Shown here: positions 19,257 to 63,868 of the stretch, piece after piece | Position numbering within the stretch: position 1 is the stretch's first letter | How the letters are laid out: every line of letters starts with the position of its first letter | From: a bacterium ADurb.Bin157 | GTDB taxonomy: Bacteria; Muiribacteriota; Ozemobacteria; Ozemobacterales; Ozemobacteraceae | Assembly (NCBI GenBank): GCA_002070375.1 | Contig: MWDD01000007.1 | Location: 12,985-76,984 of the forward strand | Length of the DNA stretch: 64,000 nucleotides | Direction: 5' to 3' | Position numbers and translations under genes: made by a program | The notes under the pieces: model-generated | What the model was told of the DNA's origin: nothing | Seen by the model: only the letters and a program-made list of their open reading frames with translations | Databases searched by the model: none

Positions 19257-19258
19257 GC

Positions 19259-21357: not shown

Positions 21358-21358
21358 A

Positions 21359-26070: not shown

Positions 26071-27423
26071 ATGTCAGATATTTTTCAGAAAGTCCCTCCG
26101 CACAGTATTGAAGCAGAACAGAGTTTAATCGGTTCTATGATGTTAAGTGAAGATGCAATAGTTGCGGCAATGGAATTGGTTTCTTCTTCTGACTTTTATC
26201 AAAGCGCCCACAGAACTATTTATGAAGGTATTTTTTCTTTGTATTCAGAGCATAAACCGTGCGATTTGGTAACTTTGCAGGAACAATTAAGGTCTCAGGG
26301 TAAACTGGCCGAAGTCGGCGGAGTAAGCTATATTTCTCAGATGTTGAATGTGGTTCCGACATCAAAGAATGCCGAGCATTATGCTAAAATTGTGAAGGAT
26401 AAGGCAATGCTCAGACAGCTTATAAGCCTTACGGGAGAGATTTCCGACAAAGCCTACGACCCGTCAACAAAAACCGAATTGATTTTAGATGAGACAGAGC
26501 AAAAGGTTTTAAAATTAAGCCAATTTAAATCCACAAAATCATTTCACGAATTAAAAGATTTAGTAAAAGAAACTTTTGCTCATCTTGAACAGCTTTATGA
26601 AAATAAACAACCGGTAACAGGTATTCCCAGTGGTTTTATCGACTTAGACGCTTACACCGCAGGCTTTCAAAAATCGGACTTAGTAATTTTGGCGGCCAGA
26701 CCTTCTATGGGCAAAACTGCATTTTGTTTGAATTTAGCGCAAAATGCCGCTTATAAAACTAAGACCCCTATTATGTTTTTTTCTCTCGAAATGTCCCACA
26801 CTCAGCTTGTAACAAGGCTTTTGTGTTCTGAAGCGCGTGTTAACGGGAACAAGCTCAGAACAGGTATGGTAGACGAAGAAGATTGGGGTAAAATTATTTA
26901 CGCTGCCGGGATACTTGAAGATACTCCCTTGCTGATTGACGATACGGCAAACGCTTCTTTGCTTGAAATTAGAAGTAAGGCAAGAAAAGCCTACGCTCAG
27001 CATAAAATCGGGATGATTATAATAGATTATTTGCAGCTTATCACTTATTCCGGCACCGACAAAGCGGAAAGCCGGCAGCAGGAGGTTAGCGCCATTTCAA
27101 GAAGCTTAAAGGGGCTTGCGAGAGAATTGGATATTCCTGTAATATGCCTGTCTCAGCTTTCCCGTGAAGTCGAGAAAAGAACCGACAAAAGACCTCAGCT
27201 TTCTGATTTGCGTGAATCAGGGGCAATCGAACAAGACGCCGACGTGGTTATGTTTTTATACAGAGATTATTATTATAATAAACAACGTGAAGAAAATAGG
27301 GGTAAAGGCGAAGTTATTATTGCAAAACAAAGAAATGGCGGCTTAGGCTCTGTAGAACTTGCTTTTAACGAAAATTTCGCAAAATTTGAAAATCTGGACA
27401 GAATACACAGAGAAGATTATTGA
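26071..27423 (+). CDS. dnaB: replicative DNA helicase DnaB
   Basis: Walker A ARPSMGKTAF and the DnaB C-terminal RecA-like domain; 450 aa. Confidence 0.95.
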   Translation: MSDIFQKVPPHSIEAEQSLIGSMMLSEDAIVAAMELVSSSDFYQSAHRTIYEGIFSLYSEHKPCDLVTLQEQLRSQGKLAEVGGVSYISQMLNVVPTSKNAEHYAKIVKDKAMLRQLISLTGEISDKAYDPSTKTELILDETEQKVLKLSQFKSTKSFHELKDLVKETFAHLEQLYENKQPVTGIPSGFIDLDAYTAGFQKSDLVILAARPSMGKTAFCLNLAQNAAYKTKTPIMFFSLEMSHTQLVTRLLCSEARVNGNKLRTGMVDEEDWGKIIYAAGILEDTPLLIDDTANASLLEIRSKARKAYAQHKIGMIIIDYLQLITYSGTDKAESRQQEVSAISRSLKGLARELDIPVICLSQLSREVEKRTDKRPQLSDLRESGAIEQDADVVMFLYRDYYYNKQREENRGKGEVIIAKQRNGGLGSVELAFNENFAKFENLDRIHREDY

Positions 27424-29533: not shown

Positions 29534-30586
29534 ATGCTTTCGCCCGTTCGTTTTAACGGGCTTTGGCAGCGTCATCAGGCGTTTGCGGCAGAGTTGGCAA
29601 AGCGTGGTTATCTTGTGTTCTTTATAGAGCCCTTTTTGACCGGGGGGCTTGGACTAAATATTGCAGAGCCAAAAGAGTTTTTGGGCAATTTAAAGGTTAT
29701 AACGGTGAAAGTGCCTTTTAAAGCTTCTTCTTTTCCGGCGTTGCAGAAAATTGCAGTAAAATTTGCAATGATGCAGGTTTTAAAAAATGTTAAAACCGAT
29801 GAGTGTTTGTTGTGGGTGGCCGAGCCATCTATGGCCGAATTTACCGCAACACGCTGGAAACAAATACTTTACGATAGATGCGATCGGCACGGGTTTTTTC
29901 CGGGACAAAGAACGTCTGCGTGGCGCAATTACGAGGCCGAATTATATGAAAAGGCTGATTTTGTGAGTGTTTCGCACCCTTATTTGTTAAAAGATGTTCC
30001 GCCTATTTTGGGTAAAACCCTTATTGTAAAAAATGCTGTTTCCGATAAATATCTAAAGCGCGTAAAGCAAAATTGTAAGCCTGTCAGCGTGCAAGATAAC
30101 GTTTTAAGGCCGCTTGAACTGGTTTCTGCAGGCGCTCATTTTGAATGGACTGATTTTAGCTGGCTTGAATGGCTTATAAATAACGAAAGTTCTTGCCGGC
30201 CGATTCGCCTGCATATCGCGGGGGCAGGTAGGGGCAGAGACTTTGAACGTTTGATAAATGCTCCGAATGTAATTTTCCATAAAAAACTTTCTCATGATAA
30301 ATTATTTGAATTATTGAGAACTTGCGATGTGGGATTGGTGCCGTTTGCCGATACAGAGCTAATAAGAGGAGTTGACCCGATAAAAGTCTATGAATACGTC
30401 GCTTGCGGTTTGCAGGTTTGGGCGCCCGATGTGTCGTCATTGCGTGAAAACCCCTATATAACCCATTTTGTGGGCAAAGGAGATGGATTGCAGGATTTAA
30501 ACAGGTCTTGTTTTGAGCAGCCTCTCGATTTGCCTACTTGGGCAGACCGGATTGAGGTGTTACTTGATGAAGTGAGGTTGTTATGA
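29534..30586 (+). CDS. glycosyltransferase-like protein (GT-B C-terminal half recognisable)
   Basis: FADTELIRGVDPIKVYEYVACGLQVWAP. The track start at 29492 is a TTG inside the upstream gene; ATG at 29534 is preferred. Its stop overlaps the cyclase start (ATGA). Confidence 0.5.
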   Translation: MLSPVRFNGLWQRHQAFAAELAKRGYLVFFIEPFLTGGLGLNIAEPKEFLGNLKVITVKVPFKASSFPALQKIAVKFAMMQVLKNVKTDECLLWVAEPSMAEFTATRWKQILYDRCDRHGFFPGQRTSAWRNYEAELYEKADFVSVSHPYLLKDVPPILGKTLIVKNAVSDKYLKRVKQNCKPVSVQDNVLRPLELVSAGAHFEWTDFSWLEWLINNESSCRPIRLHIAGAGRGRDFERLINAPNVIFHKKLSHDKLFELLRTCDVGLVPFADTELIRGVDPIKVYEYVACGLQVWAPDVSSLRENPYITHFVGKGDGLQDLNRSCFEQPLDLPTWADRIEVLLDEVRLL

Positions 30587-32214
30587 GTAATGATGTTGTT
30601 GCCGGGAAGGCATCTTTTTTTAAATTCATTGTGATTCCGTTTTTTGTTATATCTATTTTTGCGCAGTCTTATTCTAATGCCTTTTTGAATGCCTTTTTAG
30701 TCGATAACTCAAAAGCAGTGGAACTTGCGAGAACTAACAAAATAAGCGACTCACGAGAAGTGTCGTTGATTCTGCAAAATGTGGAAAAGTATAATGAAAA
30801 AGTGCAAGGCAATATTTCTGTCACTCAAACGAACGGTAAAGCCGATATAACCGTGACCGGAGAGTTTTGGTCTGCCGGCTTGAGGCTTTTTTCAATTATT
30901 GTGCTTTATTTTTGGCTGCGTCCTTTTTTTGCATATTTAAAAAAGCGAAATGAAAAACACAAAATTCAGGCTTTAAACAGATATAATAATTTTTACAGAG
31001 GAATTTTTTCATATTTATTGGCTGTGCATGTTATTTGGTTTTTTACAGCTACCTTAAAAACTTATTTGCCCGGTGATTTTTGGCGTGCAATCGTTTATCA
31101 CTCAGTTTGGTGGTTGTGTGAATGCTATTTATTCTATTCGTTTTTAGAGCCTTCTTTGTTTATGTTCGTGAGCGGAGCGTTTTTGCAGCCCGGGGTAATT
31201 GCTCCAAACCGCTCAAGTTTAAGCATATATGGCAGACTTTTAACTATGCTGATTTTTTTGGTGTTGGTTCCTATGGGTATTTTGGCCGCTTATATTTATA
31301 AGGATTATTTTTTGCTTTACGATTTTAAATATAACGCACTGCTTTTGCTGACTACCTCTATTGTTTTTTTGGTGGGAAACATGCAATTGTTGTATAAGTC
31401 GGTTCAAGAGCCTATTGATGTTCTGGCCGAAAAAATGCAAAAACTGGCCGAAGGGGACTACAGTGTCAGCACTTCAGTTCTTTTTAACGACGAAATCGGG
31501 CGTTTGAAGGCAAACTTCAACAGTATGGTCGAACAGCTTAAAGAGCGAGAAGAAATGAAAGATATTTTCGGCAAATATGTTTCTATCGAAATAGCAAAGC
31601 ATCTGATCAAAAATCATAAGGTTGATTTGGGCGGCGAAAATATTATCGCAACGGTATTATTTTCTGATATCAGAAATTTCACTTCTATGAGCGAAAAAAT
31701 GTCACCCGAAGAAGTTGTAACTATGTTAAATACATATTTTGCTTATATTACCGAACCGATAATGGCTAATAACGGCGTAATTAACAAGTTTATCGGTGAC
31801 GCGGTAATGGCTGTTTTCACCCCGCACTTAGGCTCAGAAAACCATGTCGAAGACGCCATAAAAGCAGCAAAAGAAATGCGCGAAAGACTCGCTAATCTAA
31901 ACAATTCAAAAGAGCTCAAATCAGAGATAAAGTTCGGCATAGGTCTCAATACAGGCCCTCTTATTGCCGGCAACATCGGAACACAAAAGCGATTCGAATA
32001 CACGGTCATCGGAGACACGGTTAATGTCGCTTCCCGCATGGAATCTCTTTCAAAAGCTCTTGAGCACGATATCATATTGAGCGAATCAACGGCAGAAAAA
32101 ATCGACAAAGAGTTCGCAAAAACTCTCATATTAGAAAAATCTGACCCCGTGCAGATTAAAGGCAAAAGCCTGCCTATGCCGGTTTACAAGCTGATAGGTT
32201 TTAAAACTGATTAA
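30583..32214 (+). CDS. membrane-bound class III adenylate/guanylate cyclase with HAMP domain
   Basis: TM region, HAMP (IDVLAEKMQKLAEGDYSV), and cyclase catalytic motifs VLFSDIRNFTSMSE, KFIGDAVMAVF, GLNTGPLIAGNIGTQKRFEYTVIGDTVNVASRME. Confidence 0.85.
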   Translation: MSNDVVAGKASFFKFIVIPFFVISIFAQSYSNAFLNAFLVDNSKAVELARTNKISDSREVSLILQNVEKYNEKVQGNISVTQTNGKADITVTGEFWSAGLRLFSIIVLYFWLRPFFAYLKKRNEKHKIQALNRYNNFYRGIFSYLLAVHVIWFFTATLKTYLPGDFWRAIVYHSVWWLCECYLFYSFLEPSLFMFVSGAFLQPGVIAPNRSSLSIYGRLLTMLIFLVLVPMGILAAYIYKDYFLLYDFKYNALLLLTTSIVFLVGNMQLLYKSVQEPIDVLAEKMQKLAEGDYSVSTSVLFNDEIGRLKANFNSMVEQLKEREEMKDIFGKYVSIEIAKHLIKNHKVDLGGENIIATVLFSDIRNFTSMSEKMSPEEVVTMLNTYFAYITEPIMANNGVINKFIGDAVMAVFTPHLGSENHVEDAIKAAKEMRERLANLNNSKELKSEIKFGIGLNTGPLIAGNIGTQKRFEYTVIGDTVNVASRMESLSKALEHDIILSESTAEKIDKEFAKTLILEKSDPVQIKGKSLPMPVYKLIGFKTD

Positions 32215-35753: not shown

Positions 35754-36806
35754 ATGGAACTATCTGCTATTCTTGCTCTTTCTATGCAAAGAAACGCTTC
35801 TGACATTATATTAACAGTCGGAAGACCCCCAATGTTCAGAATTAACGGTTCTCTTGTGCCCGATACAAGTGCTGTATTATCCTCAGAGGATACAGAAAAA
35901 TTGATTTTTTCTGTATTAAACGATTCTCAGGTTAAAGAATTTAATGAAAAAAACGAATTAGATTTAGCTGTTTTTTTCCCTGATTCGGGGCGCTTCAGAG
36001 TTAATGTTTTCAGACAACAAAATTTTGTTGGAGCTGCTTTTAGACCTATTTTAAGCAAAATTCCCACATTTGAATCTCTCGCACTTTCGCAAACTATTTC
36101 CAATTTTTGTAATATGCCAAGCGGTTTAATCTGCGTTACAGGGCCGACCGGAAGCGGTAAATCAACAACCTTGGCGGCCATGATAAACCACATAAATATG
36201 CATAGGCAGTCACATATAATAACCATAGAAGACCCGATAGAGTTTGTTCATTCCCATATTAGGTCTGTTATCGAACAGCGTGAGGTAGGTAAAGACACAG
36301 AAACCTATACAACAGCTCTTAAATATGTATTAAGACAATGCCCGGATGTTATTTTAATTGGCGAAATGCGTGACTTAGAAACTATAGCAGCAGCAATAAC
36401 AATAGCAGAAACGGGGCACTTGGTGTTTGCAACTTTGCATACACAATCAGCGGCAAAAACTATTGACCGTATAATCGACGTTTTTCCCCCTTATCAGCAG
36501 CAACAAATAAGAGCTCAATTGGCAAGCACCTTGAAAGGTGTTGTTTCGCAAATTCTGTTGCCGAGAAAAGACGGAATGGGAAGAGTTGCAGCGAGAGAAA
36601 TAATGGTTGTAACGCCGGGGATATCAAATCTTATCAGAGAAGGCAAAGTATTCCAGATTCCAACTGCGCTTCAAACGGGAGCTTCAGTAGGAATGATTTC
36701 AATGGATCAGTCTTTGTTGCAACTGAAAAATGCAGGCGTTATATCTGAAGAAGTCTATCAAACAAGGGTTACTCCCAAGCTAGGCGCCGCGCCTTATGGA
36801 AATTAA
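35754..36806 (+). CDS. pilT: type IV pilus retraction ATPase PilT
   Basis: Walker A GPTGSGKSTT, IITIEDPIE, Asp box and GEMRD; about 350 aa, typical of PilT/PilU. Confidence 0.85.
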   Translation: MELSAILALSMQRNASDIILTVGRPPMFRINGSLVPDTSAVLSSEDTEKLIFSVLNDSQVKEFNEKNELDLAVFFPDSGRFRVNVFRQQNFVGAAFRPILSKIPTFESLALSQTISNFCNMPSGLICVTGPTGSGKSTTLAAMINHINMHRQSHIITIEDPIEFVHSHIRSVIEQREVGKDTETYTTALKYVLRQCPDVILIGEMRDLETIAAAITIAETGHLVFATLHTQSAAKTIDRIIDVFPPYQQQQIRAQLASTLKGVVSQILLPRKDGMGRVAAREIMVVTPGISNLIREGKVFQIPTALQTGASVGMISMDQSLLQLKNAGVISEEVYQTRVTPKLGAAPYGN

Positions 36807-36820
36807 GGGAGGAAGATAAA

Positions 36821-37810
36821 ATGAAAGTAACATTAGAACAAATCGAATCGTTTCAGTTGTTTAGTAAACTTTCTAAAACAGAACTGGAAGAATTGATGCC
36901 CATGTTTGAAACAGTAACTTTTAAAGCAGGCGACAGGGTTTTCAAAGAGTGCGAAGAAGGCGATTCTATGTATCTTATACTTAGCGGGAGCGTAGATATA
37001 AGAAAATGTATCGATTTTGAATGTGGCACAGAAAAATCATTGGCAACTTTGCCAAAAGGGGACTTTTTTGGCGAAATGTCTTTGTTGACAGGCGAAAGCA
37101 GGTCTGCATCTGTTTTGGTTTTAGAAGACGCTTTGTTGCTTAAAATTTTGAGAGACAAATATATTGACCTGATGACTAAGAATCCTAGCATGACTTCGCT
37201 TCTTCTAGGCGGTTTGGTTAGCTCTATCTCAAAGCGATTAAGAGCAACAAGCCTCGAATCGGTGACCCTTTATGAAACCGGCAGAATTATCAGTAATACA
37301 AAAAATGTAAAAGATTTGTCCGCTAAAATTTTAGACAGACTTATTAAGTCAACCGGTGCAGAAGCCGGCGTTATTCTTTTTTGGAATGAAATTGTAGAAT
37401 GTTTCGAGATAGAAACCATACTAGGGAATAAAAATGAAACATTGGCTACGGCTTTTAATGGACACAGTAAGTTTTCAGAGTTTTTGCTTGGACTTAAAGA
37501 CCCCTTTGTTACCGATGAAAATCACAAGTTTGTCGAAATTAAAGAAACCGGATTAGACTGCAAAGGAATGGTTTATGTACCGTTACTTACCGATTTGCTA
37601 GACTTAAATGACCCGTATAAATATGTTAAAAAAGTAACCGGAGTTATAATTTTGGGCCACTCAAACCTAAATCATTTTACCCTTTCGAACTTAACTTTGA
37701 TGAAAGGTGTGGCAGAGCAGGTTGCTCAAGCTTTGCTTAATGCGAAGTTATTGCAGGAGAATGAGTCTAGACGAGCCTATGAACAGGTGTATGTAACTCC
37801 CGGGTTTTAA
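36821..37810 (+). CDS. cyclic nucleotide-binding domain protein with C-terminal GAF-like domain
   Basis: cNMP-binding signature FGEMSLLTGESRSASVLVLEDALLLKI; GGAGG Shine-Dalgarno. Confidence 0.75.
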   Translation: MKVTLEQIESFQLFSKLSKTELEELMPMFETVTFKAGDRVFKECEEGDSMYLILSGSVDIRKCIDFECGTEKSLATLPKGDFFGEMSLLTGESRSASVLVLEDALLLKILRDKYIDLMTKNPSMTSLLLGGLVSSISKRLRATSLESVTLYETGRIISNTKNVKDLSAKILDRLIKSTGAEAGVILFWNEIVECFEIETILGNKNETLATAFNGHSKFSEFLLGLKDPFVTDENHKFVEIKETGLDCKGMVYVPLLTDLLDLNDPYKYVKKVTGVIILGHSNLNHFTLSNLTLMKGVAEQVAQALLNAKLLQENESRRAYEQVYVTPGF

Positions 37811-39527: not shown

Positions 39528-42389
39528 ATGCCTAAGAATACCGACTCTAATGTTCATAAAGAGATTGAAGATTTAGTTACGGATTTACGTTCTACTCTTG
39601 TTACAAAGCGACTTAAAGCAGTTAAAGAATTAGGAAAACTTAAAACCGACTTGGCGGTTGAGCCGTTGGTTTATACATTGAACGATCGTTCAAAAGAGGT
39701 TCGGTGTGCGGCTGTTGAGGCCATTGGTTTAATAAACCCCGCCAATTTGGCAGATTTAATTGTTTATTTAGCCAAAGATAAATCTGCCGATGTTCGTTTG
39801 CGGGTGGCTCACGCTTTAGGTTCAAATACAACAGATTTGTCGGTTGATACTCTGATGATTTTGGTCAGAGATCAAAAAGACGAAGTTGCTAATATGGCTG
39901 CAAAAAGCTTGTCAAAGAACCCGACAGGCAGCTTGGCTTTATTGATAAGGCTTTTTGCCGATAATTCTTGGAAGTTGCGTTCAAGGGCTGCTGCCGCTGT
40001 TACGAGAATGGGCAAAGTCGCTACAGAAGCTTTGAAAGTTGCACTTGAAGACAGCGATTCAAATATTCGTTTTTGGGCGATAACCTGCCTGGGTCATCTT
40101 CGTGACAGATCTAACAGCAAGCTTTTGGTAACAGGATTAAACGATAAAGACCCCGGAGTAAGAATAGCTGCTCTCAGGGCTTTACGAGAACTTGGCGACC
40201 CAAATATCGCATCTATGTTGTTTGAAGCTCTTTCTCAACCGTCAGATCGCGTCAGAGACCTTGTTTATGAGATTTTAAAAGATTTTGGCACACATTCGAT
40301 CCCCTATTTAATGGATTCGCTGTCTAATGAGTTTTGGATGGGGCGTTCGTTAGCGGCCCAAGCCTTAACCGACATGGGTGCTGATGCGGTTGCCCCTTTA
40401 GTAAGCGCCTTAGAAAGCCAAGACAAAGAAAGACGATATTGGGCAATAAAAATACTCGGAAAAATGCGGGAAAAAACGGCTTATGCCGCGATAAAAAAGT
40501 TTCTCAGCGACCCTGACCCCGAAATAAGAATGGCGGCCCTCGAATCTATGGGCTATTATCTTGATACCGAGTCTATACCAAACCTTATAGAGCGGTTTAT
40601 GGACCCCGCTTGGGTTGTTAGAAAGCACGCGGCAAGGGCTGTTACCGCATTTGCTCATAAGGCGGTTCCGTTTTTGATAAAGTCGCTCAAATCAGAAGAA
40701 GAAGATGTCAGATATTGGGCTTTGCGTTCTCTTGGGGATCTTAAGCCAATAGGAATTTTTCCGGTATTGGTTAAGCTTTTTACAGACCGTTCATGGACAA
40801 TAAGAAAAACTACTTCTGATGTTTTATCTGAATACGGGGAAGACGCTTTGATGGAGTTAACGGCTTTGGCGGCAGATTCAATTGAGTCGGAAACCAAATA
40901 TTGGGTTTTGCGTTCACTCGGAAAAATTAAATCAAAGATATCTTTGCCGTTGCTGTTCAGGGCACTTGACGATGAATCAGAATCTATTATGGATGCTGCT
41001 CAGAAAGCTTTGTCAAATTATGGTGAAGAAATAATAGACGATCTGTTTGCTTTGTTTAAAAGTGAAAAACGCAGATTATTAGAGAGTGTGTGCAATACTT
41101 TTCAGCGTATGGACGCAAAGATCGTTGTTCCGAAGTTGTGCCGTAATCTCGGAAAATTTGATGAGCAAATAAGCTATTGGATACGCAGAACTCTTTGCGG
41201 GTTTAAAAAAGACTCGCGCGAAGAGATTTTAAAGCTATTGCAAAGCAAATCTGAAGAAATTAGGCGCCAGGCTGTTATATGCTTAGGACAATTTGGCTTT
41301 GAAGAAGACGCTAAACACGTTTTGCCTTTGTTAAAAGATGAATCATGGCCGACGAGAATCGCGGCAGCAGAGGCTTTGGGTGAATTGGGCGACCCCATTT
41401 CTGTTTCCCATTTAACAGAATCATTAGAAGACGAAGACGAAGATTTGGCCATGGCTTCCATGATTTCGCTTGGTAAAATAGGCGATGAACGGGCTGTTCC
41501 CGGTCTTATATCAACTCTTCACCACGAATCTTGGGCATTAAAGTTTCAGGCAATCAGAATATTAGGTGAAATGCGAGTAAACAGGGCCTTTATAGATCTT
41601 TTAAGATTACTGGACGAAGACACATTAGATCTTAAAACCCATATTATAGGAGCTTTATCGCGTATTTCTCACGCAAAATGCTATGATGAATTAAAGAAAA
41701 GGTTTGAAAAAGAGAAAGATTCAGAAGTCAAAATGGCTTACATTGAAGCTTTTGCAGAAATCGGAAACAAAGACATTCTTTCTTTGATTGTTAAACTGGC
41801 GAGAGAAGGCAACGAAAACCGCGAAGAGCGGCGCGCAGCAATTAGAGCATTAGGTAAAATGCACGCTATTGAAGGAAAAAATGTTTTGTTGGCGGCCTTG
41901 CGCGAAAAAGACGCGGTAATAAACAGAGAGGCGCTTTCTGCGTTAGAGCTTATTCTTGATCGCGACGAGTTTAACAGAACAGAAAAAGCGATTACTGAGG
42001 CAAGAAAAAAGCAAGAGGCTTTTACTGTGGCGTTTAATACGGGAATGAGCAATATGCGCACAAACAATTACACAGAAGCGGAAAAGCATTTAAAAGAGGC
42101 TGTTAAAATTAATCCTAGAGCGTCTTATGTGTATTCGGCTCTGGGAAATCTTTATTACAAAACAGGACGCTTGATAGATTCGACAAAAGCTTATGTTATG
42201 GCAACCGGCTTATCCCCGCAAGATGTGACTTTGAAATTGAATCTGGGAATGGTGTATTATCGAAGAAGAGCTTATAAAGAAGCTGTCGGCATGTTTGAGT
42301 CTGTTTTGTCGGTAGCAGGGCCGAAGTCGCAGCAGGGCGATTATTCTGCAAAAATGATAAATAAAATCAAAAGTGAAATTAAAAAATAA
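39528..42389 (+). CDS. HEAT-repeat (PBS-lyase type) protein with C-terminal TPR
   Basis: At least 15 repeats of the ...VRxxAxxALGxxGDxxAxxxL... unit (for example VRCAAVEAIGLI, VRIAALRALRELGDP, TRIAAAEALGELGDP); C-terminal TPR (SALGNLYYKTGRLIDSTKAY). Confidence 0.8.
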   Translation: MPKNTDSNVHKEIEDLVTDLRSTLVTKRLKAVKELGKLKTDLAVEPLVYTLNDRSKEVRCAAVEAIGLINPANLADLIVYLAKDKSADVRLRVAHALGSNTTDLSVDTLMILVRDQKDEVANMAAKSLSKNPTGSLALLIRLFADNSWKLRSRAAAAVTRMGKVATEALKVALEDSDSNIRFWAITCLGHLRDRSNSKLLVTGLNDKDPGVRIAALRALRELGDPNIASMLFEALSQPSDRVRDLVYEILKDFGTHSIPYLMDSLSNEFWMGRSLAAQALTDMGADAVAPLVSALESQDKERRYWAIKILGKMREKTAYAAIKKFLSDPDPEIRMAALESMGYYLDTESIPNLIERFMDPAWVVRKHAARAVTAFAHKAVPFLIKSLKSEEEDVRYWALRSLGDLKPIGIFPVLVKLFTDRSWTIRKTTSDVLSEYGEDALMELTALAADSIESETKYWVLRSLGKIKSKISLPLLFRALDDESESIMDAAQKALSNYGEEIIDDLFALFKSEKRRLLESVCNTFQRMDAKIVVPKLCRNLGKFDEQISYWIRRTLCGFKKDSREEILKLLQSKSEEIRRQAVICLGQFGFEEDAKHVLPLLKDESWPTRIAAAEALGELGDPISVSHLTESLEDEDEDLAMASMISLGKIGDERAVPGLISTLHHESWALKFQAIRILGEMRVNRAFIDLLRLLDEDTLDLKTHIIGALSRISHAKCYDELKKRFEKEKDSEVKMAYIEAFAEIGNKDILSLIVKLAREGNENREERRAAIRALGKMHAIEGKNVLLAALREKDAVINREALSALELILDRDEFNRTEKAITEARKKQEAFTVAFNTGMSNMRTNNYTEAEKHLKEAVKINPRASYVYSALGNLYYKTGRLIDSTKAYVMATGLSPQDVTLKLNLGMVYYRRRAYKEAVGMFESVLSVAGPKSQQGDYSAKMINKIKSEIKK

Positions 42390-49020: not shown

Positions 49021-50733
49021 GTGGCAGAAAATCCTATAACAGGCTTTCAGAGCATATTATTTGAGGCTCAGAGGCAAATATTGGCCAATGGTAAAAACAT
49101 TGATGCCATTTTGAGAATATTAGCCCAAACTTCATGTGACCTTTTTGACGTCAAAGGTTTGGCGGTAATTTTCTATGACCAATCTTCGCAAACCACTCGA
49201 ATTCGTTTTAATGACGGTTTTGAAGAACATATATTAAACGAGTATTGCATCTACTTCACCAAAAACAAAGCAGATAAAGCTGTTTTTGAAAGATCTATGC
49301 TCGAACAATGCGGTTCGAACAACTATTTTGTCCCCCTTGGAAAAAAAGAAGAGCCTTTTGGGGCAATACTTTTGAAGCCTATTGATGAGTCTCTTTATCC
49401 AATAGGTGATAGTTTTATAGAATTAGCTGCTACCGCACTCGGAACCTTTTTAGAATTAGAACTTGTTCATCTTAGAATGGAAGAAATGAACGCTTTGCTT
49501 GAAGTTGGCAGAGTTGTCAGTTCAACACTTGACTTAAAAGAGCTGTTGACTAAAATTATGAGCACAGCGACAAAGGTTATGCGTTGCGAAACTTCTACTG
49601 TTTACTTAGTTGACCAAAATTCAAATGAACTTTATTTTCATATTGTAAGCGGTGATTCCAATATCAGCGCTAAACTCCAAGAAATACGACTCCCCATGGG
49701 AACCGGCTTGGCAGGGTGGTGCGCACAGAATAATGCTCCCGTAATTGTGCCTGATACATCTAAAGACCCAAGGTTCTTTAAAGGTGCCGACAAAAAATCA
49801 GGCTTTGTTACGAGGTCGATGCTTTGTGTGCCTATGTGTCACAAAGATACTGTTGTTGGGGTTTTGCAGGTTTTAAACAGAACCGGAGACATTCCTTTTA
49901 ACGATCATGATCTCGAAACTCTTGTGAATGTGGCTAATCAAGCTGTCTCAGCTATTGAAAATGCTAGATTATACGAAAATATACAAAAAATATATCTTTC
50001 AACAATTGAAGTCTTGGCAACGGCAATAGATGCTAAAGACCCCTATACTCAGGGTCATTCTCGCAGAGTTACACAATATTCGGTAGCTATAGCAGAACAA
50101 ATGGGGCTCGCACAAACAGAAGTCGAAAATATCAGATACGCCGGTCTTTTGCACGATGTCGGTAAAATCGGTATAAAAGACAGTATTATACGTAAGCCCG
50201 GACGTTTAACCGATGAAGAATATGCCATAATCAAAATGCACCCGTCAATTGGCGCGAGAATTTTAAGACCTGTTGATTTCTTGGCAGACAAGATTCCGGG
50301 AGTTCTTCACCATCACGAATATTATGACGGGCGCGGATATCCTGACCACCTTATCGGAACAGATATACCGCTTGCCGGTCGTATAATTTGTGTGGCAGAC
50401 GCTTTCGATGCAATGACTACCAATCGCCCATACCGAAAAGGACTTTCTGTAAACACAGTTATTGCCGAACTTAAAAAATTCTCAGGCAAACAATTTGATC
50501 CTGAATGTGTTCAAGCCTTTTTAAATGCTTTCGATGAAAAAATTTCTCAGTATTTTGAACCGACAGATGACGGGGCAGATATGGTTCTTATTGATGATGA
50601 AACCGGTAAAGAAGCCCCTGAAGACGAAATGATAACAGAAGGAACCCCTTCTTCCCAGCCTTACCCTCCTATGGCTCACCCCGACGAAGAGAAAAAAACA
50701 GATTCACAGCCATTTCCTCCTATAAAGTGTTGA
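49021..50733 (+). CDS. GAF-GAF-HD-GYP cyclic-di-GMP phosphodiesterase
   Basis: HD-GYP core GHSRRVTQYSVAIAE...LLHDVGKIGI...HHHEYYDGRGYP; two GAF-like regions upstream; proline-rich C-terminus; GTG start after an AAGGAGA Shine-Dalgarno. Confidence 0.85.
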   Translation: MAENPITGFQSILFEAQRQILANGKNIDAILRILAQTSCDLFDVKGLAVIFYDQSSQTTRIRFNDGFEEHILNEYCIYFTKNKADKAVFERSMLEQCGSNNYFVPLGKKEEPFGAILLKPIDESLYPIGDSFIELAATALGTFLELELVHLRMEEMNALLEVGRVVSSTLDLKELLTKIMSTATKVMRCETSTVYLVDQNSNELYFHIVSGDSNISAKLQEIRLPMGTGLAGWCAQNNAPVIVPDTSKDPRFFKGADKKSGFVTRSMLCVPMCHKDTVVGVLQVLNRTGDIPFNDHDLETLVNVANQAVSAIENARLYENIQKIYLSTIEVLATAIDAKDPYTQGHSRRVTQYSVAIAEQMGLAQTEVENIRYAGLLHDVGKIGIKDSIIRKPGRLTDEEYAIIKMHPSIGARILRPVDFLADKIPGVLHHHEYYDGRGYPDHLIGTDIPLAGRIICVADAFDAMTTNRPYRKGLSVNTVIAELKKFSGKQFDPECVQAFLNAFDEKISQYFEPTDDGADMVLIDDETGKEAPEDEMITEGTPSSQPYPPMAHPDEEKKTDSQPFPPIKC

Positions 50734-57730: not shown

Positions 57731-59185
57731 TTACTCTCGTTCGGTGGTCGGATCTTCAGAAGATTTTTTTTCTTTAACAGCAACAACCGCGTTGTTTTTT
57801 TGTTCTGCTTTGTTTTCTTCTTCGTTTATTTCTATTTTTCCCACTACTTTAAAGTTGGCACAGAATTCTTTGTCGTCGTCTTTTCCAAGTTCGGCAGATA
57901 TGTCGTCGCCTTTTTCGAAAGAGCCTTTGAGTATTTGTTCCGCAAGAGGGTTTTCGATATATCTTTGAATGGTTCTGCGCAACGGTCGAGCACCATACTT
58001 AAGGTCAGTTCCTTTGTCTACCAAGAAAGTTTTAAGTTCATCGGTAAAAGTAATTCTCATGTTGAGCGCTGAAACTCTTTCGGCAACTTCTTCAACAAGA
58101 ATATTCAGAATTTGGAGGTTATCGTTTTTGTCTAATGCTCTGAAAACAATTACATCGTCAATTCTGTTTAGAAATTCGGGCGGGAACTTCTTTTCGAGGC
58201 TTTTTCTGGTGATTTTAACTTTTTTCTCATGAGAAAGGTCGTCGAGCTTTTCGGTTGTTTTGGTCGAAGAATCTTCGATTCTGAAACCGGGTTTGGTTTC
58301 TTCGGTTGTTATATCCGCAACACCGATATTTGTTGTAAGAATGATTACGCATTCTCTGAAGCTTACTGTTTCGCCCTTGCTGTCGGTTAGAATTCCTTCG
58401 TCAAGAAGCTGAAGAAGTAGGTTATGCACTTTTTCGTGCGCTTTTTCTATTTCGTCGAAAACAACAACTCCGTTTGGTTTGTTCTTAACAGATTCGGTAA
58501 GATAACCACCTTCGTTGTGCCCGATGTAGCCGGGAGGGGCTCCGATCAGTTTGGCGTATTCGTGGCTCATGGCAAATTCAGAGCAGTCGATTCTGACTAA
58601 GTCAATTTCGCTTCCGGTCATAAATTCACAAAGAGCTTTTGCCAACTCTGTTTTGCCTACACCTGTTTGACCTACGAAAATAAAGCTTCCGACCGGTCTG
58701 CGCGGATTTTTCAGCCCGACTCTGGCTTTTCTGATTGCTTGAGCTACAGCGGTAACAGGTTCATCTTGCCCAATTATTCTTTTGCGCAAGTGATTCTCTA
58801 TTTCCATGTATTTTTGCTGAGCTGCTTTGGCTTCGTCAGATTCAGAGGTAGGAACAGCGTTTCCGGTTGCGGTTGCTTCGTCTACTTGAATTGTAACTTC
58901 TTTTATATCAAGAGACGGGTTAACCTTCACGCATAGGTTGTAAAGCTCCTGTTCGATGATTTCGCCAAGGAGCGGGTATTCGTTGTTCCCGAAAACTAAA
59001 GGTGCAATTTCTTCAGAATAATTAACTACGGCCGATTTGATGATAAGCTTTTTGTATGACTTTTTATCGGTGATTTTAATATTCTTGAAGAGTTGTTGCT
59101 TTTGTTCGGGAGTGTATGATCTTATTGCAACAAAACGATCAAGAGATTCACAAAATTTCATCTTGATTCCTAGTGTGGAATCCAT
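57731..59185 (-). CDS. Clp/Hsp100-family ATPase with only the second (D2) AAA+ module
   Basis: IIGQDEPVTAVAQAIRKARVGLKNPRRPVGSFIFVGQTGVGKTELAKAL...LIGAPPGYIGHNEGGYLTE...VVVFDEIEKAH...YGARPLRRTIQ match ClpA/B/C D2. There is no D1, N-domain or ClpP-loop tripeptide; the unique N-terminus is about 115 aa and the C-terminal tail is K/E-rich. AGGAGGG Shine-Dalgarno. Confidence 0.8.
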   Translation of the reverse strand: MDSTLGIKMKFCESLDRFVAIRSYTPEQKQQLFKNIKITDKKSYKKLIIKSAVVNYSEEIAPLVFGNNEYPLLGEIIEQELYNLCVKVNPSLDIKEVTIQVDEATATGNAVPTSESDEAKAAQQKYMEIENHLRKRIIGQDEPVTAVAQAIRKARVGLKNPRRPVGSFIFVGQTGVGKTELAKALCEFMTGSEIDLVRIDCSEFAMSHEYAKLIGAPPGYIGHNEGGYLTESVKNKPNGVVVFDEIEKAHEKVHNLLLQLLDEGILTDSKGETVSFRECVIILTTNIGVADITTEETKPGFRIEDSSTKTTEKLDDLSHEKKVKITRKSLEKKFPPEFLNRIDDVIVFRALDKNDNLQILNILVEEVAERVSALNMRITFTDELKTFLVDKGTDLKYGARPLRRTIQRYIENPLAEQILKGSFEKGDDISAELGKDDDKEFCANFKVVGKIEINEEENKAEQKNNAVVAVKEKKSSEDPTTERE

Positions 59186-59285: not shown

Positions 59286-60698
59286 ATGATTATACAAACA
59301 AAAGCTTTTGAGGATTTATTTGACAGAGGGATAAATTATTTTCGGGCAGGCTTTTATTCATCGGCGTTGGCTGAGTTTAATCAATTAAAAAAACTTTGCC
59401 CTGATTATCCAAACATTGACCATACAATCGAAGCTACCAAAAAGAAAAACGAAGAAATTAATGGTCAGCTTTCTAATTTTATAGAAGAGAACTTTGATGA
59501 CGAAGTTGTGAGTCTCTCTGAAGAATTGTCAGTAGAGAACTCTTCAAATCTGGCTCCTGTAGTTAAATCTTTTTTAACCAAAGGAAAATATTCTCAGGCT
59601 CTTGAAAAGCTGAAACAAGCAGAGGCGATAGTTCCCGAATCAAGATCTTTGTTACTTTTGATGGGTAATACACAAAGACGTTTAGGGCACCTTAAAGAGG
59701 CTGAAAAAACTTTATTGCGAGCTTCACACCTTTTTCCGAATGATCCGGATATTTTGAATAATTTAGGAAATATTTATCTGTTGCTCGGTATGTACCACGA
59801 AGCGGAAGACGTTTTACGTGCAGCTATGCGCCTTTCACCCGATAATGCCCGTCTTTTTAATAATTTGGGCTCTCTTCGCATGCAGACGCATAATTTAGAT
59901 GATGCCGAGAGGCTTTTTAGAAAAGCTCTAAAACTTGAGCCCGGACGCTACATTCTCGCAAAGAATTTAAAAAACCTGCAAACAAGAATGGTTGCATTAG
60001 ACGAAGAAATAGAAAGACTTCGCGAAGAATACTCTTTGCACCCAACATATCTCGATATAGGATTAAGCTTGGCTAAAACTTTGTTTTTCAGAGGTTACCA
60101 TGCGGAGTCTAAAAATGTTTTGAGGGGTCTTTTGAAGAAAAATTCAGGTCTCTCTAATGCTTGGTTTTATCTGGCTATTATTTATGAGATTGTTGACGAT
60201 AAAGATAACGCCTGTGAGTGCTATGAAAATTTGGTAATACACAGCGGAAAAGACAACGCGCCTGAATTTTTGAATTATAAGCGATTATTTAATCAAGGTT
60301 TTATAGAAGAAGCATTGGTCGAAATTAAGAAAATTGCTGTATTAGAACTTGATATTGCCTCGAGCAGAATAAATTTAGGCATTAAATATTTTGAAGATTG
60401 CCTATGGGAAGAAGCCTTAAGACATTTTGAAGAAGCGACCGAAATAAATGATTCTTACCCGGATGCTTATTATTGGAAAGCACTTGCCCTGATTCAATTG
60501 AAGAAAACTGCATTAGCGAAAAAAAACTTAGTAAAAGCTTTGGAGTTAAATCCAAAATATGCCGATGCACATTTTCAGATGGGTCTTTTGATTCGTTCAA
60601 AATCGGCAAAAAAAGCAAAAGAACATTTCAGCGAGGCTTTATCGCTAAATCTGAGGCCTTCTTTCGCGAGAATTGCAGAACGCTTATTAAACGAGTAA
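59286..60698 (+). CDS. TPR-repeat protein
   Basis: Multiple 34-residue TPR units (ALKLEPGRY, AMRLSPDNARLFNNLG, ALELNPKYADAHFQMG). Confidence 0.75.
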   Translation: MIIQTKAFEDLFDRGINYFRAGFYSSALAEFNQLKKLCPDYPNIDHTIEATKKKNEEINGQLSNFIEENFDDEVVSLSEELSVENSSNLAPVVKSFLTKGKYSQALEKLKQAEAIVPESRSLLLLMGNTQRRLGHLKEAEKTLLRASHLFPNDPDILNNLGNIYLLLGMYHEAEDVLRAAMRLSPDNARLFNNLGSLRMQTHNLDDAERLFRKALKLEPGRYILAKNLKNLQTRMVALDEEIERLREEYSLHPTYLDIGLSLAKTLFFRGYHAESKNVLRGLLKKNSGLSNAWFYLAIIYEIVDDKDNACECYENLVIHSGKDNAPEFLNYKRLFNQGFIEEALVEIKKIAVLELDIASSRINLGIKYFEDCLWEEALRHFEEATEINDSYPDAYYWKALALIQLKKTALAKKNLVKALELNPKYADAHFQMGLLIRSKSAKKAKEHFSEALSLNLRPSFARIAERLLNE

Positions 60699-60706
60699 AA
60701 TAATAG

Positions 60707-63700
60707 ATGGATAAAAAAGTTTTTAAAAAATTTTTCCCGGCTTTTCCGATTGACAATGAATCTCTCGAAAAGTTGCATAAAATTTTGGTTGTGGGCGGGT
60801 GTGTTGATGCAAAAGTCTGGGAAGGCTTTGAAAACACTTGTACAAGCCCCCTTGCTTTTATTGAAAAAGTTGCGGAATTGAAAGAAGTCACTACAGAAGT
60901 GCTTGCATCAGCCGAAGCTGATATTCTTAATGTTCCCTTTATTAAAGTTGACCAAATTGAGATTTCTCAAGATGCTTTTAAGCTTATTGACAGTAAAATT
61001 ATTGTTGAGAAGCAAATTATTCCAATTAAAATAAATGGGCCTGAATTGGTTGTGGGTACAATTCAACCCGGTGATCCGGCAGTGTTTGACGGAATAAAGC
61101 TTACCATGGCAATAAAACCGGCAAAAGTTTTGGCTGATGCACTCGAAGAAAAAATAGCCCAAATGACCGGGGTTAAACAGGTTAAAAAAGGCCCTCAGCA
61201 ACGTAAACGCCTCGGAGACATACTTGTTGATTTAAAATATTGTAAGCCCGAACAACTTGACGAGGCTTTTAAAGGTGCTCGTGATCAAAAACTTCGTTTG
61301 GGTGCGTACCTTGTAAAACAAGGAATAATTACCAATAAACAGCTTTCGGTGGCCTTGTCGAAACAGTTCAATATTCCTTATATAGATCTGGATGAAAGTT
61401 TAGTAGACCCGGTTTTGGCAACCTTGTTGCCCCAAAAGCTATGTTATGAACATTTGCTTTGCCCGGTTAAACGCGAAAACAACAAGCTGGTTGTGGCGAT
61501 GCATGACCCTACAGATATTATTACGATAGACCACATCGAAATGATGACGGGGATGCGTATTTCGCCGGTAGTCAGCTCTGAACTTACAATTATGGCTTCA
61601 CTTGATAATCTTTACGGAGACAGCATAGATTCTTTGTCTGACTCTATAGGTGGTGAAGACAAGCAAGAAGATGTGCTTGACGGCATGGAAATGGGTGAAA
61701 ACGACGCGCCTATTATTAAGTTAGTCAATCTTATACTGACTCAAGCAGTCGTTTTGAATGTTTCGGATATTCACGTCGAAGTCTACGAAAGTGAGTTCAG
61801 AATAAGATTTAGACAAGACGGAACGATGAAGCTTTTTATGACACCCGCCAAAGCGGCTCATACTGCCTTGGTCAGCAGAATAAAGGTTATGGCGAACCTA
61901 GATATAGCTGAAACAAGAAGACCCCAAGACGGCAGAATAAAAATGAACATGCAAAACAGAAAAATTGACTTGCGTGTTTCTTGTATACCCTGTGTTTGGG
62001 GTGAAAAAATTGTTATGAGAATTTGCGACCAAGGTAACTTAAAGGTTGACTTAAAAGACCTTGGTTTTGAGCCTTTTGTGCTTGAAAAATTTATGGGCGG
62101 CGTTGAATCGGCAAACGGAATAGTTCTGGTTACCGGTCCTACCGGTTCCGGTAAAACAACGACTCTTTATTCATCATTGTTTTTGTTGAATAATCCGGCT
62201 GTAAATATTATGACAGCGGAAGACCCGGTCGAATACAATTTGATGGGTATAAATCAGGTACAGTGTCATGCAGATATCGGTTTAGATTTCTCGGCGGCAT
62301 TGAGATCATTTTTGAGACAAGACCCCGATGTTATAATGTTAGGTGAAATTCGTGATTTTGAAACAGCCAGTATAGCCATTAAAGCGGCTATGACGGGACA
62401 CCTTGTTATCTCGACTTTGCATACAAACGATGCGCCGGCAACGGTCGCCCGTTTGCTAAACATGGGTATAGAGCCGTTCAGTCTATCGACCTCATTGAGA
62501 GTTGTGCAGGCACAAAGACTTGTTAAAAAAATATGCAAAACTTGCGCAGAAGAATATAAACCCGACAAAGATCTTTTGCAGTCTCTCGATATAAATGAAA
62601 AAACCTTAAAAAGATTGCATCTTGATGATCAATTTTCAATGGATACATTGGTTTTTAAAAAGGGCGGCGGCTGTCCCGATTGTGACAATAGCGGCTTAAA
62701 AGGCAGACAGGGAATATACGAAGTCCTTGAAATGACACCCGGTTTCAGAGAATTGGTCGAAAGGCGTGCAACAACAGAAGAAATGAGACGACATGCCATA
62801 CAAGACGGTATGTTGAGCTTAAGAGAGTCTGCATTGTATAAACTAATTACAGGCAGAACAACTGTTTCAGAGGTCGTAGGAACAACTGTCGACTCAGGCG
62901 GACACGAGGAAGAAGAGGAAGAAAAGAAGCCAAAAATGGCTGAAGAGTCTTCAGATGCAGAAGTTGAAAGATTAAAACAAGAAGAAGCAAAGCAAAAAGC
63001 AATAGAAGAAGCGGCAAGGCAAAGAGAAGTTGTTACCATAGGCTCTTCTGTAGGCTTAAAAGACTTAACAGCGGAGCTTCACGAGTTTAACTGCTTGCTT
63101 AACAAAATGGCAAAAACCTCTTCTGCCGTTTCCGGAAGTGCTTCGAATGTTTTGAATTCCGAAATTTTGAAAGCTAACATAGTTGTGCCTCTTCAGACAA
63201 TAAAAGCATACGCATCAAAATCGGAGGACGCTTCAAAAATGCTTCCTGCAATTAAGGCGCAGGGGCAAAAGATGGAACACAATATTAAAAACCTTGTGAG
63301 CCACTTCTCTGAGTTTTCACCGAAATTTGCAAAAGCACAACTTAATCAATTAGTGGAAAAAGAAATTTTTGCCGCCCTTAAAGACCATGTTGTTACTGCA
63401 AGATTAGTTTCCGGTATAAAAGACATCGGTAAAAACCTTAAGCTTTCGAAAAACCTTTCTGTAGATCTGCCTCTTGTTAAAATAGACAACACAGCCTTTT
63501 CTACCATTGCTTCTAACGTTTTTATTAATGCGTTAATAGGTCTGGGCGAAAAAGGCGGCGAAGTCAAAGTCGTAACGAGAATTAAGCCAAAATCCGACAA
63601 AATAGTTGAATTGATAATATTTGACAGCGGTTCAGGTATTCCTGCAAATGTGCAAACGAAATTATTTGAACCTTTTAACGGTAAAAAGACTTTGGGACTC

Positions 63701-63811
63701 GGTCTTTCGGTTGTAAAAAAGCTTTTAAAAGAACTTGGGGGAGAGATTTCAATCAAAAGTGTTCCCGGTAAGAGTACAATGGTTACAATGGAGTTTCCGA
63801 TAATTAAATAA
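60707..63811 (+). CDS. GspE/PilB-type secretion ATPase fused to a C-terminal histidine-kinase-like (HATPase_c) module
   Basis: Two T2SSE_N/MshEN-like N-domains (LGDILVDLKYCKPEQLDEAFK...LGAYLVKQGIITNKQLSVALSKQFNIPYIDL); Walker A GPTGSGKTTT (about 62135), Asp/His boxes and tetracysteine CKTC...CPDC; an E/K-rich linker; then a candidate H-box AELHEFNCLLNKM (about 63071) and HATPase_c N/G1/F/G2 boxes VFINALIGLG, DSGSGIP, FEPF, GLGLSVVKK (about 63520-63760). Confidence 0.85.
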   Translation: MDKKVFKKFFPAFPIDNESLEKLHKILVVGGCVDAKVWEGFENTCTSPLAFIEKVAELKEVTTEVLASAEADILNVPFIKVDQIEISQDAFKLIDSKIIVEKQIIPIKINGPELVVGTIQPGDPAVFDGIKLTMAIKPAKVLADALEEKIAQMTGVKQVKKGPQQRKRLGDILVDLKYCKPEQLDEAFKGARDQKLRLGAYLVKQGIITNKQLSVALSKQFNIPYIDLDESLVDPVLATLLPQKLCYEHLLCPVKRENNKLVVAMHDPTDIITIDHIEMMTGMRISPVVSSELTIMASLDNLYGDSIDSLSDSIGGEDKQEDVLDGMEMGENDAPIIKLVNLILTQAVVLNVSDIHVEVYESEFRIRFRQDGTMKLFMTPAKAAHTALVSRIKVMANLDIAETRRPQDGRIKMNMQNRKIDLRVSCIPCVWGEKIVMRICDQGNLKVDLKDLGFEPFVLEKFMGGVESANGIVLVTGPTGSGKTTTLYSSLFLLNNPAVNIMTAEDPVEYNLMGINQVQCHADIGLDFSAALRSFLRQDPDVIMLGEIRDFETASIAIKAAMTGHLVISTLHTNDAPATVARLLNMGIEPFSLSTSLRVVQAQRLVKKICKTCAEEYKPDKDLLQSLDINEKTLKRLHLDDQFSMDTLVFKKGGGCPDCDNSGLKGRQGIYEVLEMTPGFRELVERRATTEEMRRHAIQDGMLSLRESALYKLITGRTTVSEVVGTTVDSGGHEEEEEEKKPKMAEESSDAEVERLKQEEAKQKAIEEAARQREVVTIGSSVGLKDLTAELHEFNCLLNKMAKTSSAVSGSASNVLNSEILKANIVVPLQTIKAYASKSEDASKMLPAIKAQGQKMEHNIKNLVSHFSEFSPKFAKAQLNQLVEKEIFAALKDHVVTARLVSGIKDIGKNLKLSKNLSVDLPLVKIDNTAFSTIASNVFINALIGLGEKGGEVKVVTRIKPKSDKIVELIIFDSGSGIPANVQTKLFEPFNGKKTLGLGLSVVKKLLKELGGEISIKSVPGKSTMVTMEFPIIK

Positions 63812-63821
63812 GTTTTATTAA

Positions 63822-63868
63822 AGTGCCGGAGGTTTATTAAAAAAGCCTTCGGCACTTTTTTTATATTT
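63822..63868 (+). terminator. terminator-like hairpin followed by a T-run
   Basis: aagtgccggagg...ccttcggcactttttt. Confidence 0.5.

Follow-up and report, generated by a model that had tools for sequence, protein, structure and literature searches.

The 64,000-nucleotide stretch of DNA analysed here (hereafter, the window) comes from the bacterium ADurb.Bin157 of the Ozemobacteraceae (GenBank assembly GCA_002070375.1, contig MWDD01000007.1, positions 12,985 to 76,984 of the forward strand). We focused on one gene near its end, at 60707–63811, which a first-pass annotation of the sequence had described as a pilus or secretion motor ATPase of the PilB/GspE type fused to a histidine-kinase-type ATPase. 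The gene and the parts of its 1,034-amino-acid (aa) product are listed below in window positions. DHp stands for the dimerization and histidine phosphotransfer domain of histidine kinases and CA for their catalytic and ATP-binding domain; N2D and CTD are the second N-terminal domain and the C-terminal domain of the motor; AF2 is AlphaFold2, pLDDT its predicted local distance difference test score and c-di-GMP cyclic di-GMP.

60707..63811, + strand: fusion gene, a PilB paralogue with a C-terminal DHp–CA module (ATG start, 1,034 aa plus stop)
60707..61171, + strand: extra N-terminal MshEN/T2SSE_N-like domain, aa 1–155 (second Pfam MshEN stretch; AF2 pLDDT ~80–87)
61199..61621, + strand: MshEN domain, aa 165–305, with tandem c-di-GMP motif RLGDILV...Q / RLGAYLVKQGIITNKQLSVALSKQ (NF053729, Pfam MshEN, 5htl)
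61697..62878, + strand: PilB-type ATPase (N2D + CTD), aa 331–724 (Pfam T2SSE; N2D and CTD span aa 335–728 in the AF2 layout)
62894..63157, + strand: flexible tether, aa 730–817 (AF2 pLDDT, column identity, end of plain PilBs)
63158..63307, + strand: DHp-like helical hairpin, aa 818–867 (AF2 helices 818–837 and 842–867; Foldseek; alignment with 33 kinases)
63329..63808, + strand: CA (HATPase_c) domain, aa 875–1034 (Pfam HATPase_c; pLDDT mostly 85–98)

The open reading frame (ORF) is unbroken on the forward strand. A stop or frameshift around 62900–63050 had been named in the first-pass annotation as the sign of two genes joined in error; none is present, and the motifs picked out at that stage (Walker A, CKTC, CPDC, ELHEF and the N, G1, F and G2 boxes) all lie at the residues given for them. 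An identical 1,034-aa protein is encoded on a contig of an independent NCBI metagenome-assembled genome (MAG; GCA_022704895.1), and the 99%-identity cluster of the protein holds 95 member sequences.

To test whether the fusion is real, we used its non-PilB part alone (aa 730–1034) as the query. A word-indexed search of 5.8 billion proteins returned only 14 close relatives before scores reached those of ordinary kinases, and when 1.84 billion representatives were scanned exhaustively with HMMER, only 6 clusters matched the module below 1e-30, one of them a full-length fused homologue of 1,029 aa. The four of these clusters that reach upstream of the module all carry PilB sequence there, as does every relative that is long enough at its N terminus. 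Scanning one genome per species yielded about 40 full-length loci, nearly all from Candidatus Riflebacteria, Rifleibacteriota or Ozemobacteraceae. At 40/40 genome loci, with GC contents from 32% to 68%, the module and a Walker-A-bearing PilB share one ORF, of 1,012–1,056 aa where the contig allows. Searching with the full-length protein recovered about 100 clusters that combine MshEN, T2SSE and HATPase_c, after which scores fall from at least 807 to 670 bits, the level of plain PilBs of 573–628 aa. These results mark the fusion as old, spread across the phylum and maintained by selection. The ORF check, Pfam, the same single ORF in 40 species-level genomes and the ~100 clusters bear out the fused architecture first proposed from the window, which is real, unusual and conserved. 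A T2SSE–HATPase_c fusion independent of this family was seen neither among the best 120 full-length matches nor in the module search, no dedicated query for the architecture having been made.

That neighbouring pilB and kinase genes were joined by a sequencing or assembly error is extremely improbable. The gene is called as two overlapping ORFs on one metagenome contig (L001), as such an error might suggest, but the lesion there is a deletion plus frameshift within the PilB CTD, away from the joint, and the joint between PilB and linker stays in one frame in L001 and in two further contigs (L002 and L003). We rejected the artefact on these grounds, together with the single ORF at all 40 loci over their whole GC range, the ~100 full-length clusters and the identical protein of GCA_022704895.1. 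The lesion of L001 (at 3100–3800) comprises a deletion of ~30 codons and a frameshift by which the second Cys pair is lost (FKK/.../FRELIE) and the gene call split; either the gene is a pseudogene there or the assembly is at fault. Four contigs labelled Avigastranaerophilus, Erysipelotrichia or Methylomirabilis (L006, L008, L022 and L027) carry the gene with Riflebacteria synteny and are probably mis-binned or mis-labelled.

The fused gene is a second PilB paralogue, not the sole PilB of its lineage. One MAG with a fused locus (L041) also has a plain 582-aa PilB in a pilB–pilT–pilin–pilin cluster (L058), and one complete 5.2-Mb chromosome encodes both the fused form (P0273) and a plain form (P0303).

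The motor part of the protein is that of a complete PilB-type ATPase. Pfam T2SSE (PF00437) matches aa 331–724 at 435.5 bits (gathering cut-off 24.9; 1.6e-130); Walker A lies at aa 477–486 (62135–62164), accompanied by the Asp box, Walker B and the His box, and the zinc tetracysteine is formed by CKTC (aa 610–613, 62534–62545) and CPDC (aa 656–659, 62672–62683). Walker A is identical in 41/41 orthologues, and the remaining ATPase boxes are nearly invariant. The NCBIfam model for type IV-A PilB (TIGR02538) scores 656.2 bits over aa 169–728, narrowly below its equivalog cut-off of 675.65, and outscores the GspE model (546.7 bits); the closest relatives in the PDB are the PilB proteins of M. xanthus and Geobacter. 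By homology, the protein is expected to form a hexamer, to hydrolyse ATP and to act in pilus extension.

Two Pfam MshEN stretches precede the ATPase, the better at aa 221–305 (5e-31). NF053729, a model of the MshE-related c-di-GMP motif, matches aa 168–220 (61208–61366) at 48 bits against a cut-off of 38, and the structure of the MshE N-domain (5htl) matches aa 165–275. The second c-di-GMP repeat fits the consensus RLGxx(L/V/I)(L/V/I)xxG...LxxxLxxQ; the first departs from it in having K177 in place of Gly and its Q-ending moved by three residues. Both repeats are kept in every orthologue that covers the region, and by its motif the MshEN domain is a predicted c-di-GMP receptor. Leaving aside its 305-aa C-terminal extension, the fusion protein still has ~729 aa, compared with 573–628 aa for plain PilBs. 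Matches to the PilBs of the PDB do not start until about residue 160, so the first domain (aa 1–155), modelled by AF2 in the full-length protein as a helical bundle plus an alpha/beta fold, is an addition as well.

Plain PilBs of the same phylum stop at window residue 728–731, where the tether starts. It consists, in order, of an acidic run, a KPKMAEES island, a variable E/K helix, a helix at aa 782–804 and an S/G/A-rich spacer of variable length; column identity is 0.22–0.57, and AF2 pLDDT falls below 50 for aa 730–752, 767–782 and 804–814, with values of ~58–65 for helix 782–804. The KPKMAEES island (aa 741–748, 62927–62950) is conserved amid the variable acidic tether in the Rifleibacter-type clade and not kept in the Ozemobacteraceae-type clade. 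It is a candidate short linear motif, possibly for the co-operonic TPR protein described below.

Beyond the tether lies a module with the shape of a histidine-kinase core. Pfam HATPase_c matches aa 927–1031 at 58.2 bits (cut-off 26.4; 1.3e-15), and the CA boxes are all present: N at aa 937–947 (63515–63547), G1 at aa 973–979 (63623–63643), F at aa 987–990 (63665–63676) and G2 at aa 997–1001 (63695–63709). The residues of the ATP pocket are strictly conserved, N941, D973, G975, G977, F990, G997 and G999 in 71/71 orthologues and N937 and F987 in 70/71, making some ATP-dependent activity, possibly that of a kinase on another acceptor, plausible. Two AF2 models were built, one of the C-terminal 315 aa and one of the full-length protein with an 81-sequence alignment. 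In the former, the module adopts a Bergerat-type CA fold (pLDDT >90) with a DHp hairpin. Foldseek matched this model to DHp–CA cores in the PDB, with DivL at the top (4q20, E 5e-17), followed by ZraS and HK853 (TM score 0.73–0.75, root-mean-square deviation 3.3–3.5 A; ~237–257 columns for HK853 and DivL), and with RetS also among the matches. NCBIfam gave weak partial matches of the C terminus to AtoS, ZraS and NtrB-type kinases. The GHKL/HATPase_c fold read from the motifs in the first-pass annotation is thus upheld by domain search, fold comparison and a confident AF2 model of the CA domain, with a DHp hairpin present besides. The full-length monomer model has a predicted template modelling score (pTM) of 0.44 and a disordered tether, and it does not fix where the module sits relative to the motor.

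A block on the first CA helices, K.HVVTARL.SG.K.IGK.LK.SK (aa 891–915, 63377–63451), is nearly invariant in the family. This region is ordinarily variable in histidine kinases. Together with the invariant E790 and F794 of the tether helix, the block hints at conserved protein–protein surfaces.

The H-box has degenerated. The first-pass annotation had singled out an H-box-like segment, AELHEFNCLLNKM, but the H-box lies elsewhere. When the protein is aligned with 33 ordinary HisKA kinases, their H-box, xAHE(l)xNPLxxI, pairs with window LKANIVVPLQTI, and the equivalent is LKANIVVPLQTIK (aa 821–833, 63167–63205), which contains no His. The stretch LKANIVVPL is the true H-box. Ala823 (63173–63175) occupies the phospho-His site (His in 32/33 kinases), Asn824 the catalytic acidic site (Glu/Asp in 33/33), Pro828 falls under the invariant Pro (33/33) and Val827 takes the phosphatase Asn/Thr position, at which the family has Val, Ala or Asp. 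The spacing from Ala823 to the N-box Asn941 is 118 residues, close to the ~120 residues between His260 and Asn380 of HK853, and phmmer independently set HK853 in the same register. Among the 71 orthologues, position 823 is Ser in 21, Gln in 14, Lys in 14, Ala in 8, His in 6 and Asn in 3, with other residues in the rest, and position 824 is Asn in 61. At the site where class I histidine kinases have an acceptor His followed by an acidic residue, the window protein has A823–N824. No HisKA-type domain of Pfam (HisKA, HisKA_2, HisKA_3 or HWE) was found in the fusion protein even at E <= 1, and precomputed Pfam assignments for all family members contain PF02518 alone, with no HisKA-type match.

Two other histidines were considered as the H-box and rejected. 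His792 (codon 63080–63082), part of ELHEF (aa 790–794), lies on the low-confidence tether helix 782–804, 31 residues before Ala823, and the 33-kinase alignment sets the H-box at aa 821–833. His858, suggested by a single weak sub-alignment of phmmer to LvrB, sits in the second DHp helix, only 83 aa before the N-box, and other family members have Phe or Tyr in its place.

These residues bear on a reading of the protein as a bona fide sensor histidine kinase, in which motor state or c-di-GMP would cause the CA domain to phosphorylate His792 or His858, with the phosphate then passed to an unlinked response regulator. The invariant ATP pocket and the HK853-like DHp–CA fold are what such a kinase would have, orphan kinases are common, and His792–Glu793 forms an H-E context kept in 46–49 of 71 orthologues within a poorly conserved linker. 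However, A823 and N824 occupy the H-box itself, whereas His792 lies off it, behind a variable disordered spacer. Residue 792 is His in 46 orthologues, Gln in 14 and other residues in the rest; the two proteins nearest to that of the window (78–79% identical overall) have Gln there, and most of the more divergent members (55–60% identical, Ozemobacteraceae-type) have Gln, Glu, Ser, Lys or Arg. The His has been lost repeatedly, with at least nine state changes at this position on a rough neighbour-joining (NJ) tree. In 23/71 orthologues there is no His at 792, 823 or 858. A search for receiver (REC) genes came up empty for the 49 window ORFs of at least 150 aa that were scanned, for the genes that follow directly in the source genome and for the recurrent neighbours of the 40 loci. 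The cognate response regulator to be sought beyond the window end is not found there, where flgK and a 242-aa gene follow. Phosphotransfer from a candidate His is unsupported as a conserved function, given A823/N824, the presence of His792 in only 46/71 orthologues and the lack of a HisKA domain and of a receiver gene, and we consider a sensor kinase of this kind unlikely.

The loss of the acceptor His alongside an invariant ATP pocket would also suit a Ser/Thr (or Tyr) kinase derived from a histidine kinase, PDK/BCKDK- or SpoIIAB/RsbW-like, that would switch the motor by phosphorylating its PilB core, the TPR partner or some other protein. PDK/BCKDK and SpoIIAB-type kinases offer precedents by analogy: the mitochondrial PDK/BCKDK keep a DHp-like bundle without the His, and SpoIIAB-type anti-sigma kinases share the same ATPase fold. 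Against this, aa 740–870 contain no Ser, Thr, Tyr, His or Asp that is invariant across the orthologues, leaving no invariant hydroxyl residue in tether or DHp; no STAS or known substrate-type gene lies in the neighbourhood; and the nearest sequence relatives are ordinary NtrB/ZraS-type kinases rather than Ser kinases. We regard this alternative as quite unlikely.

The genes and signals around the fusion gene are as follows.

59286..60698, + strand: cytoplasmic TPR protein, 470 aa, co-operonic (Pfam TPR; 8 nucleotides (nt) upstream of the fusion gene; same place in 36 loci)
57731..59185, − strand: single-ring AAA+ protein (AAA_2 + ClpB_D2-small), 484 aa (divergent; same position in 28 loci; link to the fusion positional)
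63820..63868, + strand: intrinsic terminator, 16-bp stem plus T-run, 9 nt past the stop codon of the fusion gene

The order AAA+ / TPR / fusion gene is shared synteny of Riflebacteria loci. The upstream TPR neighbour had already been noticed in the first pass; in relatives, the fused gene always comes after it, and the gap between the two is mostly 6–30 nt, suggesting a two-gene operon, which in the window is ended by the strong terminator. The N-terminal ~160 aa of the AAA+ protein have no Pfam match. Recurrent neighbours at the 40 loci are AAA_2/ClpB-D2, TPR, a secreted protein with no Pfam match, S4/pseudouridine synthase, CHASE2-cyclase, PBP2, LysM and LPG-synthase-type proteins. In 38 loci, a gene for a signal-peptide protein with no Pfam match follows the fusion gene at a gap of 24–58 nt (for example, L004 11060–11812, L011 11032–11607 and L029 10969–12693). 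This protein occurs in two size classes (190–250 aa and 565–655 aa) with a common C-terminal FFxxGxYxDxKxGRxMxFxV; it was rejected as a partner ('cluster 2') for having no Pfam match and for being missing at this place in the window genome, in which flgK, and then the 242-aa gene, come next.

In our reading, the fused gene encodes a second copy, specific to Riflebacteria, of PilB, the extension ATPase of type IVa pili, and its module derives from an NtrB/ZraS/AtoS-type kinase core in which the H-box has become degenerate and the CA pocket has stayed intact. With a probability of roughly 60%, the module is an ATP-binding, dimerizing, kinase-derived regulatory appendage, that is, a pseudo- or atypical kinase with no canonical His–Asp relay. 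Each hexamer would carry six modules, whose three DHp dimers could couple or gate subunits or bridge hexamers, and the module could bring in partners, the co-operonic TPR protein for example. Another possibility within this proposal is that the module acts as an atypical kinase whose target is not a DHp histidine. Either way, it would provide a second nucleotide-dependent input or output on a c-di-GMP-responsive pilus motor.

Several observations weigh against this proposal. Every ATP-binding residue is invariant, a pattern commoner in active kinases than among the known pseudokinases, which tend to lose the ATP pocket. The strongest unexplained point is the pairing of an invariant ATP pocket with no conserved acceptor. 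Dimerization and subunit coupling are conjectural, and the monomer AF2 model (pTM 0.44) does not fix domain placement. Because His792–Glu793 is conserved in 46–49 of 71 orthologues amid an otherwise variable linker, it points to selection on the pair in part of the family, including the window, and in this sublineage it could be an accessory, non-canonical phospho-site without which the family copes. The NJ tree behind the count of His792 changes is rough, and phosphotransfer to an unlinked orphan response regulator may still be compatible with the gene context. A catalytically active module, whether through autophosphorylation of the tethered His792 gated by the state of the hexamer or by c-di-GMP, or through Ser/Thr phosphorylation of the motor or the TPR partner, is a tentative and rather improbable prospect; if true, a kinase built into a secretion or pilus motor ATPase would be seen here for the first time.

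Set beside M. xanthus and Geobacter PilB, V. cholerae MshE and T. thermophilus PilF, the PilB core of the fusion matches 3jc8, 5zfr and 5tsg at 520–530 bits. It shares with the PilB/MshE motors the tandem RLGxx(L/V)(L/V) MshEN motif, all ATPase boxes and the zinc tetracysteine, and T. thermophilus PilF (6f8l, which the fusion matches) likewise has more than one MshEN/GSPII-type N-domain. However, these motors end where the fusion's 305-aa extension of tether and DHp–CA begins, and unlike their genes, the fused gene lies apart from pilT and pilins, beside a TPR gene, and co-exists with a plain PilB. PilB-type motors are controlled by separate factors, among them c-di-GMP, PilZ/FimX and polar recruitment proteins. 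A 2024 review of PilB regulation mentions no kinase fusion (PMC11656802).

The module shares with the class I kinases NtrB, ZraS and AtoS and with HK853 the DHp hairpin and CA domain, the N, G1, F and G2 boxes, and the Pro and hydrophobic pattern of the H-box (xx-I-xx-P-L-xx-I). In contrast to these kinases, the fusion has no sensor, transmembrane or PAS domain, the motor ATPase standing in the place of an 'input', and because the acceptor His was looked for and found to be lacking, we leave it out of the histidine kinases. In keeping the kinase fold without the canonical acceptor His, the module resembles DivL of Caulobacter and RetS of Pseudomonas and is a candidate pseudo-histidine kinase, a label for which its invariant ATP pocket calls for caution. 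The shared lack of the acceptor suggests signalling by protein contact rather than phosphotransfer. DivL and RetS have impaired ATP sites; DivL can do without its kinase activity, and ATP binding by RetS is abnormal. By contrast, the ATP residues of the fusion are all invariant, its fusion partner is another one and there is no sequence-level orthology with either protein.

Coupling of the state of a ring ATPase to a kinase-type module would have a functional analogue in KaiC–SasA/CikA, a system of separate proteins, unrelated in sequence and with a canonical His. Histidine-kinase signalling is also tied to pili, as here, in PilS–PilR and in the Chp system (ChpA–PilG/PilH), and the nearest ordinary relatives of the module partner an NtrC-type regulator, as PilS partners PilR. 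PilS and ChpA are separate proteins. Unlike the fusion, the kinases of these systems have a canonical His, act on transcription or cAMP and are in no case fused to a motor.

Riflebacteria are an uncultured phylum. Full-text literature searches on PilB–kinase fusions and on Riflebacteria pili found no description of the architecture, and databases carry the family under automatic names ('PilB', 'TadA', 'ATPase T2SS/T4P/T4SS family', 'hypothetical' and, for one UniRef entry, 'histidine kinase'). Neither 'PilB' nor 'TadA', 'histidine kinase' or 'hypothetical' fits the fusion proteins. The architecture is real, conserved, lineage-specific and undescribed in the literature searched. The phylum keeps a second PilB in which each subunit has a kinase-shaped ATP-binding module; because every subunit carries one, the ring motor and the signalling-type domain would be linked directly and in fixed stoichiometry. 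With its intact ATP pocket and decayed H-box, the family offers a test case for histidine-kinase cores that have moved past histidine-kinase function.

Genes for cyclic-nucleotide signalling are densely represented elsewhere in the window, at 14654–16945 (a CHASE2-GAF-GGDEF diguanylate cyclase), 30583–32214 (a HAMP-adenylate/guanylate cyclase), 35754–37810 (a PilT-like ATPase followed immediately by a cNMP-binding protein) and 49021–50733 (a GAF-HD-GYP (HD_5) phosphodiesterase). This gene set fits, without proving, a c-di-GMP-responsive motor. The pilT and pseudopilin genes reported elsewhere in the window in the first pass were located: the PilT-like gene occupies 35754–36806, and two N-methyl pseudopilin genes occupy 20902–22075. 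The latter close a stretch at 18702–22075 in which an ECF sigma factor gene comes first and two ORFs that match no Pfam family come next; window 22823–23311 and L063 13305–16041 belong to the same observation. Because FlgN is encoded in the window and flgK just past its end, in addition to the pseudopilins, the organism appears to have both flagellar and pilus/pseudopilus genes.

Both dnaA (7427–8821) and dnaB are in the window (regions 7064–8821 and 26071–27423), and the 364-nt gap upstream of dnaA could be a candidate oriC site. A 953-aa protein encoded at 39528–42389 combines HEAT repeats, in nine HEAT_2 stretches, with TPR.

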